Origin: a virus
Lineage: Duplodnaviria > Heunggongvirae > Uroviricota > Caudoviricetes
Length of the DNA stretch: 46,053 nucleotides
IMG/VR virus record: IMGVR_UViG_2541047806_000008
Reading direction: 5' to 3' (one strand)
Within the stretch, counting starts at the first letter, position 1; the number at the start of each line of letters is the position of its first letter. Made by a program: the position numbers and the translations under genes. The notes below the pieces were generated by a model that made no database searches, had not been told where the DNA came from, and saw nothing but the letters and a program-made list of their open reading frames with translations. Below are positions 1 through 9,848 of this stretch, piece after piece.

Positions 1-750
1 TCAGTCAATTGTTTTGTTTATTCCATCTGTGACGCCGATTATTTTCTCAAAATAATGAGATGGCGTGACACCATAATAATCTTTAAATGCACATATGAAA
101 TATGAAGTACTGTTATAGCCACATTTCTGGGCTACGACATTGATAGAATAAGAGTTTGAAGTTATGAGTTTTTTTGCATACCTCATCCTAGTATCTCTCA
201 ATATTTCAGTAAATGACGTTCCTTCATCCCTTAATCTTTTTTTTATTAAACTTTCACTCGTATAAATCAATTCCGCAATATCTTTTAAATGCCATTGCCG
301 CTCAATATTAAAACTGATTATTCCAGTAATTTTACAGGTGAATGTATTTATATTTGTTAGTATAAAAGAATTTACACTTTCGCGTTTTTTGAACATGGCA
401 AGTAAGGATATACATAGTCTTTCTTTTAACCAAAGGGAGTGTGAGTCTGCTATTTTAATCCCTTCAAACAGAGAAAAAACAAGCGATAATGGAGGTTCCT
501 CTTCAGCAATATAGCCATTCTTATCAAGAGTAAATTTGCCAGGCAGCTCATTATTCACGTCGATAAAAAAGGATAAACATGTTTTCTTATCTATATCAAC
601 AATTCTTAGTTTAGAGGGGCATACTGGTAACTCCCTTCTAATTTTGTCGCTTACAATAAACAATGAATTTTTTTTGAACGAGATAACTCTCCTGTTTATA
701 ATTAAATCAAATGATTGACAGATGAAAACTACGGAGCAAACATAATCCAT
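1..750 (-). CDS. appY: AraC-family transcriptional regulator AppY
   Basis: 249-aa ORF; translation matches E. coli AppY as recalled ([21 protein letters not shown]...), with C-terminal AraC-type HTH region. Host or cargo gene at prophage boundary. Confidence 0.8.
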
Positions 751-1425
751 CTTGCACCTATCATAAAATTAAAACAAGTTGATAGCAGTCAAATAACAAC
801 CAATTAAATACACAATCATAATCAGGATGATGTGCATTTATATTTTTATACACAAAATTATAGTTTGCAAATTTTAATAAATTTCATTTAAGATTAAATT
901 ATTATATGTATATTGTTTTTTATTCTAACGTATTTCAAAGTTACATTTTTCAACGCTTACTATACTTTTTATTAACATAAACTCACTACAACGCACCTGA
1001 AACCTCTTGCTATATATATGTCAACCGTTTGAATTTAAAATAAAAAGAGTATCATTTTTACTTGCATTTCTTATCAAGTCACATTCAACAACAGTAAAAA
1101 AACATTATTAGAACCATCCAATTAACAAAAAACCAACATCCAGCTTGCTTAATTTTTCTTTATTAAACGATATTGAAAATCAATTGATAAAATACATCTA
1201 AACAACCTTTTGGGGCGCAAAAGCATAACATCAAACAAACAAATAACACACCGAAAAAACTCACAATTAATAACCTATGATATACATACTGTTTATTATG
1301 GTTGAATAAGCCACTCGATATCTGGTGCTACGGAAGTGTCCACACGGTTTAGCAGCACCCGATACTTTTTTCAGGCTTCCAGCAACGATCTTTCTTCCTC
1401 CGTTGCATATACAGCTCACCTTTTT
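751..1425 (-). promoter_or_regulatory. Extremely AT-rich upstream region of appY (putative promoter and silencing region)
   Basis: About 670 bp with no ORF of 60 aa or more, very AT-rich by eye with A/T tracts; immediately upstream of the appY start. Exact promoter elements not assigned. Confidence 0.35.
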
Positions 1426-1719
1426 TCACCCACGATTAACCAACAGCCAGACCAGCAGACACGCCACCACCGGCACAGCAAAATCCATCAGGCTTGCCAC
1501 ATCCCATGCGCGCGAATCAAAACCGCCCCACCACGGCATATTCATTCGCTTGCCATGCCCGAACATTTCAATCCAGCGATATTCTGCCTGGGTGTGTTCA
1601 CGCGCAATGAAGAACGTACAACCGGCTATCGCCCCGTAAACCCAGTTTCCGGTAAAAAGACCAATCAGTACCTGCGCAGCCACAGCACAAAGCGCATGAA
1701 GAAAAGGTGTTATATCCAT
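1426..1719 (-). CDS. Hypothetical small membrane protein (about 3 predicted hydrophobic helices)
   Basis: 97-aa ORF directly downstream of the tail fibre module; hydrophobic stretches (LHALCAVAAQVLIGLF, VYGAIAGCTFFIA, FAVPVVACLLVWLLV). Family not recognised. Confidence 0.4.
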   Translation of the reverse strand: MDITPFLHALCAVAAQVLIGLFTGNWVYGAIAGCTFFIAREHTQAEYRWIEMFGHGKRMNMPWWGGFDSRAWDVASLMDFAVPVVACLLVWLLVNRG

Positions 1720-1729
1720 TACTCCTCCT

Positions 1730-2434
1730 TTATCCGATATCGCTTCGGGAAGTTGATAACAACTTCAATTCTGACTCAAGTTCATCAACTCTTTCGGTCA
1801 GTTTCTGGATATGGTGAATCAGTGGAACAACCAGACGTTCGTACATTACACCTTCGGCAACAAGGCCATTGCTGGAAATAGCTTCCCGTGCATCATCTTC
1901 GTTAGCTGATCGCCAGTGTACAAACTGAGGGGCAATTTCTCCTACTTCCTCGGCAATCAATCCGTAGAATCCCCAGTCACGCCTGTCATTTTCGCATTGT
2001 GACCTGTACCATACAGGGCGCATCCTGAAAATGAGATCGGCGTGCTCTGAATCTATCGTCTCTACTGAATGCTTATAGCGGATAGACGATGTTGACCGCA
2101 GTACAGACGAAATTGCAGGGTCAGGATTAAGATAAAGGTTTGCCGCCGCTGTAGTCGTGGCCAAATTCCATAAATAAAACGCTTCACGACCTGTCAGTGG
2201 ATAAAAATCTCCGCCATAACGACCACTTTCCAGATCGTTCACTTCCACTTTGTTTTTCAGCTTATTATCAACTTCAGTTTTTGTGTATCTGGAGCTGATA
2301 TCCTGCTTTGCACTGGTCATATCAGTCTGAAGCGTTGATACTTTACTGTTAATTGAGGAAATATCTTCCTTCGCTTTACTGACATCTCCCTTCAGCGTGG
2401 TGATGTCTCCCGGAATTACTGTCGATGTAGCCAT
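1730..2434 (-). CDS. Tail fibre-like protein with C-terminal intramolecular chaperone (peptidase S74-like) domain
   Basis: 234-aa ORF; C-terminal region (WGFYGLIAEEVGEIAPQF ... YERLVVPLIHHIQKLTERVDELESEL) resembles the auto-cleaving chaperone domain of phage tail fibres and spikes; N-terminus coiled-coil-like. Confidence 0.5.
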   Translation of the reverse strand: MATSTVIPGDITTLKGDVSKAKEDISSINSKVSTLQTDMTSAKQDISSRYTKTEVDNKLKNKVEVNDLESGRYGGDFYPLTGREAFYLWNLATTTAAANLYLNPDPAISSVLRSTSSIRYKHSVETIDSEHADLIFRMRPVWYRSQCENDRRDWGFYGLIAEEVGEIAPQFVHWRSANEDDAREAISSNGLVAEGVMYERLVVPLIHHIQKLTERVDELESELKLLSTSRSDIG

Positions 2435-2443
2435 TTGTCTCCC

Positions 2444-2725
2444 TCACATCCAGCCACGAAGTTGATGTTCAACAACAACCGCGTATTCATCGAATATTGA
2501 CGATTTTTTTGCATCATTAATGATGCGCACGTTTACAAAATATCCGTCTTCCTTAACACATACCGGTTCGCCATCTTCAGTCAGTTCTCCGGTTTCTTTG
2601 TACACGTTACCTATCACGTCAATAAGAATATCATCCTGCATCAACTCGTCATCATAATAGCCAATGCTCTCCATAAAGGCCGAAAAGTCGGCCCTGTCTG
2701 CAAATTTGAGTGTTAAATCTTTCAT
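2444..2725 (-). CDS. Hypothetical protein in tail-fibre-assembly (tfa) position
   Basis: 93-aa ORF whose start overlaps the stop of the stf C-terminal fragment; does not resemble lambda Tfa as I recall it; function assigned by position only. Confidence 0.35.
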   Translation of the reverse strand: MKDLTLKFADRADFSAFMESIGYYDDELMQDDILIDVIGNVYKETGELTEDGEPVCVKEDGYFVNVRIINDAKKSSIFDEYAVVVEHQLRGWM

Positions 2726-3264
2726 TTAATACTCTCCCCCATTTGCGCATCAGTTAATTCTTTATGCCATATTCTCAGGTTACGAACGTGACCAAACAAG
2801 TGACGTTCTCCTCCAGCAGAAGTTCCCCCAATACGTATTTCATGTGCAGCTCCGGTATTCTTCCATGACGAAGTCTGAACAGGTGACAGGTAACCATTAC
2901 AACAGCAACGAAATTCAGTCGAGCTATTACAGACAAAACCAGCAATCATTTTGCGCCCGGCCTTCACAGATGGACTAAGATATGCAGATCTCACTCCAAA
3001 CTGAACATAAGGTAAAGGTTCTACATCCGGACTTGTAGGCGTCCTGAAAGCCAATACCAGTTGTTCATCATTAGTCGCCACGCCAATAGTGGTTAAAATT
3101 CGTGGGGCCTGATTTGGCGTAGAGTCCCAATTTTTATGTATTTCAACAAGACAGCTTAAAGGGACAGAACTTATGTTATTTCTGGTTGAAAAAATAACCA
3201 TATCACTCGCCCTTGTCGCAGGAACACCTGGTGTGACAATAAATGATGATAAGCAAGAACCTAG
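2722..3264 (-). pseudogene. stf: Side tail fibre (stf) C-terminal fragment, separated from its N-terminal part by IS5; LamG/concanavalin-like distal domain
   Basis: Reading frame is open from the IS5 junction (CTAG at 3261-3264) to the stop at 2722; ends with a pentraxin/LamG-like motif (FGHVRNLRIWHKELTDAQM). Same frame as the N-terminal fragment across the target duplication. Confidence 0.7.
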
Positions 3265-4459
<1,195 letters not shown>

Positions 4460-6290
4460 CTAGCTCTATTTGAGGGGTGGTTACATCCATAAAACTAGTC
4501 TTATCAAAATTAGCACCCAGTTTGTTTGACATCAGAATGGCGCCGTTAATATATGTAGAGTCGTCTGTTACTTTATAAACAGCCTCTACAGCAACCCACT
4601 CACCGTCACGAACAACATTTTTCACAGCAATATTAGACGCATCTGCTCCAGACGTGAATGTATCTAGTGTGGCGCTATCAATAAAAATGGCAGCTACAGC
4701 AACTGGCGAATCCCCTTTATCAAATCTAGCCGCAAATCTTACATTATCCCCTTTTGCTCTAAAGGATATTGTAACTGCATCATTTTTGACTACCGCTATC
4801 TTATTTGCTGCTGCCCCTGATATAATTCCATATGAGCCAGAACTATCTAAATATTTTTCTGGGGTAAACGTTGCATATTTAAAACCCCTGGAATCGGTTT
4901 TTGTCTCGCTTATCTTCAGGCCTGGATTTTTATTCCACAATTCCGGAGCGTTTGAGTTTGTGAAGTAATTTGTTCTCTGCCCTTCAATTAACAGCCCTTC
5001 TTTTTCAAAACGTGGCTCATTAATTTCTGCAATGGTAAGAGCGCCGGACTTATTGATATAGGTCGCGGAACTCGCGCGGGAAAACGGGACAATTTTGTCG
5101 GATGGTATAGTGACCACATCATCGCGCACTGTTATTTTTTTATATCCCGGGCCAAATCCTGTAATCATATCCATCGAGTCATTAAACGGTATCCACACAT
5201 CAGGCAACGGCTGCAAAACTTGTTTATACGGCTCAGCTGCCTGGCTTGCGTACTCCCTGGCTGCGTCTTCACTTGCTTTTGCAGCCATCTGGCTTGCAGC
5301 GGATGCTTTCGCCGAGTTAGTCGCCGCAGTCTCGCTCGCCTTTGTGTTGGTTTCACTGGTTTTTGCTGCTTTTTGACTGTTGGCTGATGCAGTGGCAGAA
5401 GAAGCCGCCGCACTTGCAGAACCAGCTGCGGCACTCTCGCTTTGGGCTGCTGCATCCTGGCTGTTTTTCGCCGCAGTTTCGCTGGCTTTGGCATTCGTTT
5501 CGCTGGTCTTCGCTGCCGTCTGGCTGGACTTTGCGTTAGTTTCACTCGTCTTCGCAGCTTTCTGGCTGTTAGCCGCAGCAGTTGCTGATCCAGCTGCTGA
5601 AGTCGCAGAACCGGCTGCCGCGCTCTCGCTTTGGGCTGCTGCAACCTGGCTGTTTTTTGCCGCAGTTTCACTGGCTTTGGCATTCGTTTCGCTGGTTTTC
5701 GCTGCCGTCTGGCTGGACTTTGCGTTGGTTTCGCTCGTCTTTGCGGCTGTCTCGCTGTTTTTCGCGTTGGTTTCTGATTTTTTGGCTGCTGTCGCGGAGT
5801 TTGCCGATGCAGTCTTTGAGGTCGCTGCCGCCTGTGCACTATTAGCTGCATTCGTTTCTGAGGTTTTCGCCGCGTTCTTCGATGATGCCGCTGCAGTTTC
5901 GGATTTCTTTGCCGCCGCTGCGCTCTGAGAGGCGGCTTCGGCGTTGCGTGCCGCTTCTTCCACCATTTCCTCAAAACGACGCAATGCTTCCGGCATGACA
6001 TCATCTTCCGTCATGGCACCGAGAAAATCATTCAGCGTACCTGGTCTGGAACCTTCATAGACGGTAATGGTTCCGGCATGTGAAGGCGGAAAACCTTCAA
6101 CAAGCAGGATAACGCTGTACTGGCCATACTCAACATCCATGCTGTAACGCCCGGCTTCATCCGGATTTTCAGAGGCCACCGTGTTCACCAGTACCGTGGT
6201 GCTGTTACGCTTTGCCTTCAGTTGAATAGTGCAGTTCTGTATTGGTTTTCCCGCACCATCTTTCAGCACACCTGAAATCTGTACTGCCAT
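4460..6290 (-). pseudogene. stf: Side tail fibre (stf) N-terminal fragment truncated by IS5
   Basis: N-terminus MAVQISGVLKDGAGKPIQNCTIQLKA... is lambda Stf/StfR-like; ATG at 6288-6290 preceded by GGAG; long Ala/Ser/Thr-rich repeats; the track ORF runs 38 nt into IS5 before stopping at 4422. Confidence 0.8.
5400..5780. repeat. Tandem direct duplication of about 189 bp inside stf
   Basis: Sequence from about 5431 recurs from about 5620 with few mismatches (offset 189 bp, 63 codons, in frame); encodes repeated KTSETNAKSSQTAAKTSETNAKASETAAKNSQ blocks. Confidence 0.7.
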
Positions 6291-6299
6291 ACTCACTCC

Positions 6300-6330
6300 A
6301 CAAATAAAAAAGGCGCCATTTCTGGCGCCC
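6300..6330 (-). terminator. Putative intrinsic terminator between J and stf
   Basis: Inverted repeat GGCGCC-ATTTCT-GGCGCC at 6312-6329 followed on the minus strand by a U-tract (plus-strand A-run about 6306-6311). Confidence 0.5.
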
Positions 6331-6350
6331 GTATTGGGGTTATAAATATT

Positions 6351-9300
6351 TCAACGGATACTGATACCGGAAGCAGCTTTTTTGGTCACAATCACCGTAC
6401 AGTCTGTGATGTTACCTGCGCCCTGATTGCCTTTCTGGAAAATCTTAAACTCCAGAGTGACGCTTCCCCTGCCACTCGGCATATCAATAACCGCACTGTA
6501 GCTACCGGGAATGGCCCCTTTAGTTTCTCTGGATGCGATTAATACACCGTTTTTGCGAACTTCAAAACCATAACCCGTGTATCTTGTACCTCCCGGGTTA
6601 TTACCACTTCCCGGATCGCTATACGCTATTCCGTTAAAGATAATGGGCGGAATAATGATTTGACGGTCAAAGTTATGATCATCGCTGATGGTGACTGTAA
6701 CCGTCCCGTTTGGTGTTTCCGTATTACCCCACGTACCAGCCTGTTTCGGGAATGATTTGGATACAGCTTTAACGAAGTCACCTCTGACCTGAGTCGCCTC
6801 CAGCATGCCCTTAATCGTACAGTTTTCATTTACCGTGACATTGTTGAGCGTCCCGGCGTTCGCATTCACACTGCCACTGATATCCGCATTTTTAGCGGTC
6901 AGCTTTCCGTCCGGTGTCAGGGAAAATGCCGGTGGATTTCCACCGCTGGTAATGGTGGGGGCCGTCAGGCGTTTCAGGAACACGTCGTTCATGAATATCT
7001 GATCGCCCTGACCAACAAACATCGGTTTTGTGTTGCCATTCGCAGGATTAATCATCGCAATCCTGTCTGCCGCCAGCAGCACCTGACTCTGCATGCCGTC
7101 AGGGGTGTTCTCAATACCGGCACCGATACCCGCAATATAAAGGCGTCCGTCCTGCATCTGCTGCAGCTTCACAGCCCACATGCTGTTCAGGTTATTATTT
7201 GTATCAACCTGAACTTTCTGTATCTGCTGGATCGCTGCACTCTGGTCTTCCAGTTTCTTATTGACGGTCTGTGTGATTTCATTGCTGACATCCGTAATGG
7301 ACGTCCTGATTTCAGCCAGGTCAGGCGCAAGCTGACCGTTATCAATCTGCGTCCACAGCTCCTGGGCCAGATGTGTTTTCCCGATTTCTCCTTTGAAAAA
7401 ATCCAGATAGCCTGATGCATCATCACTCGGCTGACCGACAGCCTCCACGAATGCCGATTTGCCAACGGTGTTCACACTGCGGATATAAAAGTAATAATCA
7501 TGGCCCGGTTTGATATTGATACTGGCGGCTATCCAGTACAGCGCCGTGCCAAGATAGCGTGCTGTGGTTTCAACCTGCCTGATATCCGCAATCCGCTTTT
7601 CCGAGAACCAGAACTCAAACTGTACCGTCGGATCATAAACCGCAAGATGCGGCGTGGCGGTTATCTGAAAATAGCCCGGCGTCAGCTCAATCCGCGACGG
7701 CGCTGCCGGTGCGGCAATCCGGAACGATACCGACGCCGGATCGCCCTGCTGCCCCCACGCATTTACTGCCCGGACTGTCAGCCTGTAGTTCCCCAGCGCC
7801 AGTTGTGTGAAGCGGTAAGTGGTTTCCATCGTCCGGGCCGTGCTGACCAGCCGCTCACTGCCGTCATCCGCTGTTACGGTCAGGCGAAGCATAAAGCTCA
7901 CACCCTTCACCACCTTCGGCGTGTCCCAGCGCGCCAGCACCTGATATTCCCCGCTGTCTGCGGTGACTTCGGCAGTCAGGTGCTGCACCGCTGGCGGCGT
8001 GACACCATTCACCGTGCCGCTCTGGTCGCCGTCAAAGTGCGCCCCGTTATCCACGATGGCTTCTTTTTCCGGTACATGCTGCACGGCGGTGATGGCATAC
8101 GTGCCGTCGTCGTTCTCACGGATACTCACGCAGCGGAACAGGCGCTGGCGCAGCGTCGGCAGCTTCAGCCCCCACACGCTGTATTCAGCAACGCCGTCAG
8201 GAACACGGCTCACTTTCACCTTCACGCCGTCGGTGACGGACTGAACCTCCACGCTGACCGGATTGCCACTTCCGTCAACCAGGCTTATCAGCGTGGTACC
8301 GGAGGATGGCAGCGTGATTTCACGGTCGAGCGTCAGCGTCCGGGTCTGGCTGTTTACCGCCAGCACGCGCCCGCCGATGCTGATACCGGCATAGTCATCA
8401 TCACAGATTTCAATGACATCGCCCGGCACATGGCGAAGCCCTTCTGCGCCCACGCTGAAGTCCACGGTCTGCGTTTCCAGCAGTTCTGTTTTAATCAGCC
8501 ACAGCCCGGCGCGATGTGCCTGCCCCCGGCTGGTACAGCCAAAGGCATCCATCTTCGTGACGTTACGACCGTAACGGGCAATGGCCTGCGTGTCCTCCAC
8601 AAGCTCTGTCGCCGTCTCCCAGCCGTTATTCGGGTCAATCCAGTTCACCTCAACGGCATTATGGCGGTCCTTCAGGGCGCTGAAGCTGTAGCGGAACGGC
8701 GCGCCATCATCCGGCATCACCACATTACTGCGGTTATAGGTCCACACCTTATCTGATGGTCGGTCCTGCACGAACGTCAGCGTCTGCCCGTTCCATACCG
8801 GCATACAGCGCATCGCCGAGCAGAAATCACTGAGCACATCCCACGCCTTGCGCTGTGTGGTCAGGTACGCATTACAGGTGATGCGCGGCTCCGTGCCGCC
8901 AAAGCCGTCCGGCACTGACTGGTCGCAGTACTGGCCGATGACATACAGCGCCCATTTATCCACATCCGCCGCACCAAGACGTTTCCCCATGCCGTAGCGC
9001 GGATGGGTCAGCATATCCCACAGACACCAGGCCATGTTGTTGCTGTATGCCGGTTTAAACGTTCCGTCCCAGATACCGCTGTATTGCCGCGTCTGCGGGT
9101 TATAGTTCGACGGCACCTGCAGAATGCGCCCGCGCAGATGATAATTACGGCTCACCTGCTGGCTGCCGAACTGCTCCGAATCCACCTGCACGCCGACCAG
9201 TGCCGTGTTCGGGTAGCCCTGTTTCACATCGATGATTTCGGTGTATGACGACCAGAGCGTTTTGTTCTGCAGCTGGTCTGTGGTGCTGTCCGGCGTCATC

Positions 9301-9848
9301 CTGCGCATCCGGATATTGAACGGGCGCGGCGGCAGGTTACCCACCACCACCGAGGCCAGATACTGCGAGGTGGTTTTGCCCTTAATGGTGATGTCTTTTT
9401 CCGTCACCCAGCCACCATTACGCTGGATCTGAACCAGCAGGCGGACTTCCGACGGATTCCTGTCCCCCTTTGAGGTGGTTTCCACCAGTGCCTGCACGCC
9501 GAAGGTAAAACGCAGTCGGTCAATGTTTGCCGACGTGATGGTCCGGGTGATCGGCGTGTCGTATTTCACTTCCGTACCCAGCACCGTCTCGGAGCCGGAG
9601 GATTCAAATCCCTCCGGCGGTGTCTGCTCCTGCTCACCGGCCCGGAACACCACCGTGACGCCGGAGATATTGGTATTCCCCTCACTGTCCAGCACTGGCG
9701 TACTGTTCAGCAGCACGCTTTTTAATCCATCCACCGGACCTTCAACCGGCCCTTCGCTGATGGCATCGATCACACTCAGCAACTGCGTGGACTTCAGGTT
9801 GTCCTTCGCTTCGCGCGGAGTATGCCCCTTACTGCTGCCTTTACCCAT
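6351..9848 (-). CDS. J: Tail tip central fibre / host specificity protein J
   Basis: 1165-aa ORF in lambda J position; N-terminus and fibronectin-like central region resemble lambda gpJ. Confidence 0.9.

Follow-up and report, generated by a model that had tools for sequence, protein, structure and literature searches.

Organization of the tail fiber locus

The window, i.e., the whole 46,053-nt stretch of viral DNA analyzed here (IMG/VR record IMGVR_UViG_2541047806_000008), is filled by a lambdoid prophage that adjoins appY (the DLP12 site). The locus described below is a modular side (lateral) tail fiber cassette which is inactivated in this prophage by an insertion sequence of the IS5 family. 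Its features are as follows:

1296..1406, minus strand: remnant of a conventional tfa (tail fiber assembly) gene (RefSeq annotation, E. coli 118UI)
1426..1719, minus strand: gene for a 97-aa predicted membrane protein (phrog_1443)
1730..2434, minus strand: gene for a 234-aa candidate distal fiber protein, short allele (PF13884; PDB 8hqz match)
2444..2725, minus strand: 93-aa gene, putative partner of the LamG-type fiber head (phrog_1361, E=2e-46)
2722..3264, minus strand: stf 3' fragment, codons 610-789 and stop (Laminin_G_3, NF048003, PDB 6tb9)
3265..4459, plus strand: insertion sequence of the IS5 family, 1195 bp (DDE_Tnp_1 and DUF772 matches, CTAG target duplication, inverted repeats)
4464..6290, minus strand: stf 5' fragment, codons 1-609 (phage_tail_N; colinear with the intact stf of 118UI)

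The coordinates and minus-strand orientation given in the preliminary description for the stf C-terminal fragment (2722-3264), the 93-aa gene (2444-2725) and the 234-aa gene (1730-2434, hereafter the third gene) are exact. Two further genes accompany them. The tfa remnant sits between the cassette and appY, and RefSeq annotates its identical counterpart in E. coli 118UI as a tail fiber assembly protein pseudogene with an internal stop and a missing N-terminus. In phage 21 and in 46 IMG/VR loci the 97-aa gene lies 12 nt past the 92-aa gene, and it trails the cassette in temperate lambdoid phages irrespective of the presence of the third gene; it was not found in the T1-, T5-, and 9g-like versions of the cassette, and its product has no match in Pfam or PADLOC. 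It is possibly a lysogen-expressed accessory gene that lies outside the fiber proper.

Disruption of stf by IS5

The insertion sequence interrupts stf at codon 610 and carries a transposase open reading frame at 3297-4313 (DDE_Tnp_1, 121 bits). It is bounded by terminal inverted repeats (GGAAGGTGCGAA... at both ends) and by a 4-bp target duplication, CTAG, at 3261-3264 and 4460-4463, which is present as a single CTAG in the uninterrupted allele. A length of about 1.2 kb, inverted repeats, a DDE transposase, and a 4-bp YTAR duplication place the element in the IS5 family, and a query spanning the left junction, half of it drawn from the end of IS5, aligns at about 95-96% to elements annotated as IS5-like. 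The end coordinate 3264 in the preliminary description coincides with the exact left edge of the element (3265-4459).

An intact Stf of 789 aa is found in other E. coli, and the flanks of IS5 are 100% identical to it. For example, E. coli 118UI has an intact stf and matches the window with 100% DNA identity over positions 1250-3264. The stf/IS5 junction itself was not found in 5426 complete E. coli genomes. On the other side of the element, the mechanically called open reading frame (4422-6296) takes a GTG start two codons early and runs into IS5. The insertion strips the LamG domain from Stf and is probably polar on the genes downstream of stf; hence the prophage cannot make its side fiber.

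Domains and variability of Stf

The 5' fragment of stf encodes a lambda-type tail-attachment domain, an Ala-rich shaft, and a conserved junction, and it extends through most of the head's first domain. The N-terminus matches phage_tail_N (PF08400) with 226 bits, and residues 1-94 are nearly identical to the N-terminal domain of the Ur-lambda Stf (PDB 9e7m, E=1.5e-49). The 3' fragment encodes the end of a domain resembling the spike fiber of RcGTA, followed by a LamG/galectin-like C-terminal domain ending ...ERHLFGHVRNLRIWHKELTDAQMGESIK; the two domains together make up a head of about 440 aa. The first of them is recognized in intact Stf at residues 434-628 by NCBIfam NF048003 (GTA_spike_fiber, cut-off 36, score 56.6 bits), and a profile of the fiber ends matches the RcGTA head spike fiber Rcc01080 (PDB 6tb9, E=1.8e-5), although this domain belongs to a capsid spike in RcGTA and to a tail fiber head, next to a LamG-like domain, in Stf.

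The LamG-like tip was suspected from the fragment alone, which matches Laminin_G_3 (PF13385) at E=1.8e-4 with 22.1 bits, under the Pfam cut-off of 27.6. The suspicion is borne out by the intact Stf of 118UI, which reaches 31.1 bits with an alignment confined to positions 88-149 of 151, i.e., the C-terminal third of the model, and by matches to the same family in seven of nine homologous fiber ends from different phage groups. The LamG fold of the tip is thus a prediction that draws on this partial alignment and on the published prediction for a homolog of 41% identity.

Conservation falls steeply along the protein. In comparison with lambdoid relatives, residues 1-130 are 93-100% identical and the shaft (131-350) is 95-98% identical, phage 21 excepted; the junction (351-433) is 63-81% identical across all lineages, while the head (434-789) is only 28-64% identical to that of lambdoid relatives and 41-42% identical to the heads of IrisVonRoten Gp22 and phage 21 Stf. 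No phage record with at least 60% identity to the last 190 aa of Stf was found. As the LamG-type head is the most variable part of the cassette, unlike the 234-aa protein, it is probably the main specificity determinant.

The 93-aa gene and the gene order of the cassette

The start codon of the 93-aa gene overlaps the stf stop codon (ATGA), as it does in nearly all loci. The gene lies directly downstream of a fiber gene, i.e., in the position expected of tfa. The preliminary description had judged its product unlike the lambda Tfa, and both the sequence profiles and the predicted fold agree with this: neither the Tfa family (Caudo_TAP, PF02413) nor any other Pfam family is matched at E<=0.1, and NCBIfam and PADLOC likewise give no match. 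The AF2 model is an alpha+beta fold with a pLDDT of 89 which is unlike the solved tail fiber assembly proteins, and fold searches with it returned generic alpha+beta or uncharacterized matches and no informative neighbor.

The 92/93-aa family is located directly 3' of the same fiber C-terminus in almost all of about 135 loci and occurs in 183 phage records belonging to six groups (lambda-like, T1-like, Dhillonvirus, 9g-like, T5-like, and rV5-like); in rV5 itself, gp41 is not followed by any annotated small gene. The order is head, then the 92/93-aa gene with its ATGA overlap, then 9 nt, then the gene of a protein with a characteristic N-terminal anchor, and among sufficiently long loci of this type (80 IMG/VR loci and the phage loci) it is invariant, with the exception of one rearranged and one cut-short locus. 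The same order is found in the T1-like PeterMerian (43/47/57% identity), the 9g-like ESCO3, the N15-like PhiR46_1, and the T5-like IrisVonRoten. The anchor motif is present in about 60 records of E. coli, Shigella, and Salmonella phages, just downstream of the 92-aa gene wherever coordinates or annotation were checked. The phage-21-type loci carry the head and the 92-aa gene without a third gene, and the rV5-like JeffSchatz locus likewise keeps a gene of the 92/93-aa family and has no third gene. The phage-21-type loci imply that the third protein depends on the cassette and not the reverse. The cassette is common and crosses phage families, with an optional third gene.

The retention of the 92/93-aa family where the third gene is missing indicates that its primary partner must be the fiber head. 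The 93-aa protein is most likely a dedicated partner of the LamG-type head, serving either as an assembly factor of a non-Tfa kind or as a small subunit associated with the head. It could instead be a structural knee linking Stf with the third protein, with a function like that of T4 gp35, and not a chaperone; we regard this as less likely, given that phage 21 and JeffSchatz keep the small gene with nothing to be joined and that structural similarity carries no functional signal above noise. A broader proposition is that phrog_1361 represents an overlooked partner of galectin/LamG fibers, of either the chaperone or the knee class, which together with the anchor forms a universal socket and plug for distal receptor-binding proteins. 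This can be offered only tentatively, with the balance somewhat against it. Such a scheme would allow lambda-, T1-, 9g-, T5-, and rV5-like phages to swap these distal proteins or to acquire additional ones.

The third gene

The 234-aa protein is composed of an anchor (residues 1-27, MATSTVIPGDITTLK..., with the conserved motif TVIPxDITxLK), a coiled-coil-like stalk (about 28-68), a small tip (69-115), and a chaperone domain of the S74 type at the extreme C-terminus (116-234). A region resembling the S74 intramolecular chaperone with some 100 residues ahead of it had been noticed before; Peptidase_S74 (PF13884), which has a cut-off of 22 bits, is indeed matched with 27.5 bits at residues 116-172, covering positions 1-57 of the 58-position profile, and the domain is preceded by 115 residues; the long allele described below scores 52.3 bits. 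A further match is to the C-terminal region of LtfA, the lateral fiber of DT57C (PDB 8hqz, E=1.4e-6), where SSIRYK of the 234-aa protein aligns with SGIEYK of LtfA. Ser116 aligns to the first position of the profile with the S-x4-K spacing to Lys121, and both residues are invariant in both alleles and in four phage lineages. The S74 domain is predicted to be cleaved off.

Two alleles occupy the third position, of about 234 aa and of 343-351 aa, which have the anchor and the Ser/Lys dyad in common and differ in the middle. A short allele derived from the long one by deletion was considered and rejected, as the middles are unalignable and the overall identity is 27-29%. The 90%-identity cluster of the 234-aa protein comprises 2928 member sequences, and PADLOC returns no match for this protein. 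Variation inside the short allele is low and is not concentrated at the tip, and residues 85-115 are part of a block common to fibers with the same chaperone subtype. Judged by its sequence, the short allele leaves almost no space for a receptor-binding domain and may serve as a cap instead of an adhesin.

Comparison with known fiber systems

In lambda, Stf and Tfa take the same place after J, and a small gene trails the fiber gene as it does here. The distal tip of lambda Stf is of the lambda/T4-gp37-like kind. The distal half of Stf is here a lectin-like head instead, the small gene has neither the Caudo_TAP signature nor the fold of Tfa, and an additional S74-bearing gene follows; hence the preliminary claim of a receptor-binding cassette unlike that of lambda holds. 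In T5 pb1 and the K1F endosialidase, an S-x4-K motif likewise opens the C-terminal S74 chaperone of a fiber protein, but here the S74 domain is half of a very small protein with a mature part of only 115 residues.

The closest parallel is the lateral fiber Gp22/Gp23/Gp24 of the T5-like phage IrisVonRoten (Bas32), which has been described as a proximal fiber that bears a distal receptor-binding protein (Humolli et al. 2025, PMC11990801). The AlphaFold-Multimer model published there places Gp24 on Gp22, from whose C-terminus a galectin-like domain protrudes; this domain was suggested to be an additional receptor-binding domain. The three genes have the same order and spacing as the cassette here and all three are homologous: the distal 439 aa of Gp22 are 41% identical to Stf 351-789 and share the end motif ERHLFGH.RN.RIWHKELTD, the 92-aa Gp23, which is not discussed in PMC11990801, is 38% identical to the 93-aa protein, and Gp24 has the same anchor at its N-terminus (MVTKTVIPTDITKLK) and a self-cleaving chaperone domain at its C-terminus. 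The systems differ in the tail-attachment N-terminus, which is T5-type in Gp22 and lambda-type in Stf (16% identity), in the 574 aa and two receptor-binding domains of Gp24 against almost none in the 234-aa protein, and in the IS5-broken stf of this prophage.

Similarly, DT57C and DT571-2 have two-part fibers in which LtfA is attached to the tail and LtfB joins LtfA by a conserved N-terminus, and genetics demonstrate the branched LtfA/LtfB fiber in DT57C (PMC4728585, PMC10713586). LtfB adds a second O-antigen specificity, and both proteins carry a C-terminal chaperone domain, whereas the end of Stf is a LamG-type head. The descriptions of these phages include no 92-aa gene; the anchor of LtfB is phiEco32-gp15-like, unlike that of the 234-aa protein, and TVIPxDITxLK was not detected in phages of this kind. 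The gp28 of Cronobacter Drexlerviridae was rejected as a parallel, being a different, single-polypeptide fiber. A search of the literature for fibers combining LamG and S74 domains, or for the phages by name, found nothing specific, and the Eligo base-editing paper holds nothing on fiber chaperones.

Role of the third protein and proposed assembly

The 234-aa protein is best read as an accessory distal fiber; an accessory fiber had been suggested as a possibility in the preliminary description. It might also be a trans-acting chaperone for Stf assembly that stays outside the virion and uses its N-terminus as a targeting peptide. The Pfam family name of its domain, 'Chaperone of endosialidase', the label 'putative lateral tail fiber chaperone' given to homologs from PeterMerian, KarlJaspers, and HMD-P4 (to the 231-aa homologs by the BASEL authors), and the mere 115 aa ahead of the domain, with no obvious binding domain, all fit such a function. 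However, the slot and anchor also carry proteins of 343-351 aa and 574 aa with large variable domains, the latter being the published T-shaped receptor-binding protein Gp24, and fibers of the phage-21 type have the same head without the gene, so that the third gene is unneeded for folding that head. Furthermore, S74 domains are reported (Schulz et al. 2010; Schwarzer et al. 2007) to act in cis on the segment immediately N-terminal to them. A chaperone acting in trans is therefore improbable.

A short fiber bound elsewhere on the tail tip (e.g., to J or the baseplate) and independent of Stf is more doubtful again. Short separate fibers exist in many phages, which is no direct evidence for one here, but the anchor stands beside the LamG-head/92-aa pair in every neighborhood checked, and as these phages have unrelated tail tips (lambda-, T1-, 9g-, and T5-like), the docking partner is most economically encoded by the cassette itself. 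The notion that the gene is what is left, after truncation and decay, of a larger spike or fiber with an S74 domain is hardly tenable, although a truncated remnant had been raised previously: it could appeal to an alignment confined to the C-terminal 240 of the 1385 positions of phrog_3299 and to the recurrence of the tip and chaperone block at the end of 355-405-aa fibers, but the gene has its own ATG, fixed 9 nt past the 93-aa gene in the 55 short-allele loci, which are the majority (55/82), it is under purifying selection (dN/dS 0.10-0.24), it is present at about the same size in genomes of phage isolates (PhiR49_1, IdasGreatGrand) and as a 231-aa homolog in T1-like phages (57% identity in PeterMerian), and its alignment with the larger S74 alleles, in which the N-terminal anchor and the Ser/Lys dyad are retained, marks it as complete, with the anchor common to the full-size alleles and to T1-, 9g-, and T5-like phages.

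Returning to the distal fiber, the assembly would proceed as follows. The lambda-type N-terminus of Stf would attach to the tail and lead through the Ala-rich shaft to the hypervariable head of about 440 aa, which would determine specificity, probably by glycan binding. The 93-aa protein, translationally coupled to stf, would act as a dedicated partner of the LamG head type in one of the roles considered above. The C-terminal S74 domain would trimerize the 234-aa protein and then remove itself at Ser116, leaving a mature trimer of 115 residues with anchor, short coiled coil, and mini-tip. Through TVIPxDITxLK this trimer may dock onto the distal part of Stf and/or onto the 93-aa protein, yielding a two-part or branched fiber with the 234-aa protein as an optional plug-in. 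The gene structure, the domains, the patterns of conservation and variability, the co-occurrence rules, and the IS5 insertion are observed, and the model as a whole, a lectin-headed Stf with a 93-aa partner and an optional distal plug-in, broken here by IS5, is considered probable with moderate confidence.

Implications

For this window, the side fiber is dead through a private IS5 insertion. The finding is real but largely ordinary, as the cassette is widespread and mobile, and structure predictions have already been used to describe a homologous T5-like system (PMC11990801). The 93-aa family is the only truly uncharacterized component of the cassette. If the model is true, coliphages with widely differing tail architectures, both temperate and virulent, have in common a portable three-piece host-range module, and the candidates for specificity are the lectin-like head, which is hypervariable, and the third protein, which is exchangeable. 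Knowing which piece sets the specificity and how the distal piece is plugged in would aid the prediction of host range from prophage sequences and likewise the engineering of lambda-based delivery particles.

Prophage setting and the interrupted fibre gene

The window is a lambdoid prophage, and its site is that of DLP12: appY lies at its left end, and the identical appY-end sequence in E. coli 118UI is followed by ompT, envY, and nfrA. Large ORFs fill the remainder, as expected if the prophage is otherwise fairly complete. The side tail fibre gene (stf) and its neighbours lie downstream of J, as listed here.

1-750, minus strand: appY
1296-1406, minus strand: pseudogene remnant of a conventional-type tfa
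1426-1719, minus strand: predicted membrane protein of 97 aa
1730-2434, minus strand: 234-aa protein (third gene)
2444-2725, minus strand: 93-aa protein
2722-3264, minus strand: 3' fragment of stf
3265-4459: IS5-family element (1195 bp) with terminal inverted repeats and a DDE transposase
6351-9848: J
7500-8756, plus strand: 418-aa ORF antisense to J

IS5 is inserted at stf codon 610 and is flanked on both sides by CTAG (3261-3264 and 4460-4463), which occurs singly in the uninterrupted allele. E. coli 118UI and many other genomes match 1250-3264 at 100% identity and have an intact stf (789 aa). The stf::IS5 junction is found in none of the 5426 complete E. coli genomes searched; hence, this insertion is a private one, probably of recent date. 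It disables the cassette in the window: the LamG domain would be lost and the downstream genes are probably silenced. The element itself is a variant whose inverted repeat has two forms, ...GCGAACAAG and ...GCGAATAAG, one per end. A query taken across the left junction (one half IS5 end) gives matches of ~95-96% to annotated IS5-like elements.

The tfa remnant, between the cassette and appY, lies in a very AT-rich stretch (750-1300, GC 0.25-0.36), which suggests that recombination replaced an older Stf/Tfa module with the LamG-type cassette. The J-stf interval (6297-6350) is without lom here, as in E. coli 118UI; lom is present at this position in PhiR49_1, 2G7b, and PhiR46_1. The ORF antisense to J, in a region of ~60% GC, is probably a compositional artefact.

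A variable head on a conserved fibre

Intact Stf consists of a lambda-type N-terminal domain, in which residues 1-94 correspond to the solved N-terminus of the Ur-lambda fibre, an Ala-rich shaft, and a head of ~440 aa. The head carries an RcGTA head-spike-fibre-like domain (NF048003, 56.6 bits, cut-off 36) that also gives a profile match to PDB 6tb9. The LamG-like tip proposed in the preliminary description is borne out at the profile level, as the C-terminus of the intact protein matches Laminin_G_3 (31.1 bits, cut-off 27.6); the window fragment taken alone scores below threshold. Among lambdoid relatives, residues 1-130 are 93-100% identical and residues 1-350 nearly invariant (shaft 95-98%, phage 21 excepted), and the junction 351-433 is 63-81% conserved even when T1- and T5-like phages are included. 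Identity falls to 28-64% in the head (434-789), whereas the adjoining 93-aa and 234-aa genes are 91-95% identical. A variable part set among conserved ones in this way is what marks a receptor-binding head. Heads of the matching type are present in 205 phage records.

The shaft (~4950-5950) consists of repeated units rich in Ala, Ser, Thr, and Lys (…KTSETNAK.S.TAA…). These cause a marked AT skew, reaching -0.57, and several spurious long ORFs in other frames and on the other strand (e.g., 5165-6004 and 5380-5928).

The small protein

The 93-aa protein finds no match in Pfam, NCBIfam, or PADLOC. Its AF2 model, from a diverse alignment, is confident (pLDDT 89) and predicts a small alpha+beta domain, for which PDB and BFVD hold no informative neighbour and no resemblance to tail fibre assembly proteins; the earlier view that this gene is unlike Tfa agrees with both results. 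In almost all of ~135 loci (80 + 51 from IMG/VR, the others being the phage loci), it is directly preceded, with an ATGA overlap, by a fibre gene ending in ...ERHLFGH.RN.R.W..L.D.Q...; the few loci that depart from this are either rearranged or lie on contigs beginning or ending at the gene. The family is small, as 1.84 billion proteins yield 52 representatives, which, fragments aside, nearly all have ~90-110 aa. It nonetheless occurs in 183 phage records covering lambda-like (including phage 21), T1-like, Dhillonvirus, 9g-like, T5-like, and rV5-like phages. The literature searched holds no treatment of the 92/93-aa protein, nor a rule tying it to the head type rather than to the third gene.

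In some rV5-like myoviruses, JeffSchatz (L091 5001-5333) among them, a LamG-type head ends a 1479-aa lateral fibre and is accompanied by a small-protein relative of 110 aa. In rV5 itself (L143 22100-22200), gp41 ends differently and no small gene is annotated; even within this genus, therefore, the head module is exchanged. Coliphage fibre cassettes of rV5-like or T5-like type are present in records labelled as Campylobacter phages (MG0656xx) and as a Listeria phage (OR848352), with identities equal to those in E. coli phages; these records look mislabelled or mixed.

An optional third protein

The S74-like C-terminus noted earlier in the 234-aa protein is supported by Peptidase_S74 above threshold (residues 116-172), by invariant Ser116 and Lys121, and by a match to the C-terminal part of the lateral fibre of DT57C. 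The accompanying suggestion of a truncated remnant is rejected, as dN/dS is 0.10-0.24, phage isolates carry the gene, and T1-like phages encode a 231-aa homologue with 57% identity. All three sequence observations of the preliminary description stand, and its interpretation in part.

The third gene starts 9-12 nt past the 92/93-aa gene, and its product always begins with M(A/V/T)T.T(V/N)IP.DIT.LK. E. coli prophage loci carry alleles of ~234 aa (n=55) or ~346 aa (n=27), which share only this N-terminal anchor and the chaperone dyad; IrisVonRoten has a 574-aa protein in the same slot. The anchor motif occurs in about 60 records of E. coli, Shigella, and Salmonella phages, just downstream of the 92-aa gene wherever coordinates or annotation were compared, and in phage-21-type loci the 92-aa gene is directly followed by the 97-aa membrane gene, the third gene being absent. 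On this gene order, head and small protein form the core unit and the third gene is an optional add-on; the docking partner of the third protein would have to be cassette-encoded. A minimal tip or cap, and not a versatile adhesin, may be what the short allele encodes, because it varies little, with no clustering of changes at the tip, and residues 85-115 belong to a block travelling with the same chaperone subtype in other fibres. This very short allele is not reported for lambdoid prophages in the literature searched.

The 97-aa gene follows the cassette in temperate lambdoid phages with or without the third gene (phage 21 and 46 IMG/VR loci) and is absent from the virulent T1-, T5-, and 9g-like versions. 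Its product has no match in Pfam or PADLOC, and its position beside receptor-binding genes suggests an exclusion or conversion function expressed in the lysogen.

Proposed assembly and relation to known fibres

We infer that Stf trimers would join the tail by the lambda-type N-terminus, their lectin-like heads binding a variable surface glycan, and that the 93-aa protein, synthesised in step with Stf, would help to fold or complete the head. The C-terminal chaperone domain would drive trimerisation of the third protein, which may then cleave itself at Ser116 and plug its anchor into distal Stf, giving a two-part or branched fibre.

The cassette belongs to an already known kind of fibre system. 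The published T5-like trio of IrisVonRoten is homologous to it; there, Gp24 is predicted to be attached to the proximal fibre Gp22, whose galectin-like C-terminal domain has been put forward as a further binding domain (PMC11990801). The branched LtfA/LtfB fibres of DT57C are genetically established (PMC4728585, PMC10713586), and the BASEL papers point out that lateral fibres of small siphoviruses may comprise one, two, or more proteins (PMC8594841). The modest interest of the cassette rests mainly on its uncharacterised small protein.
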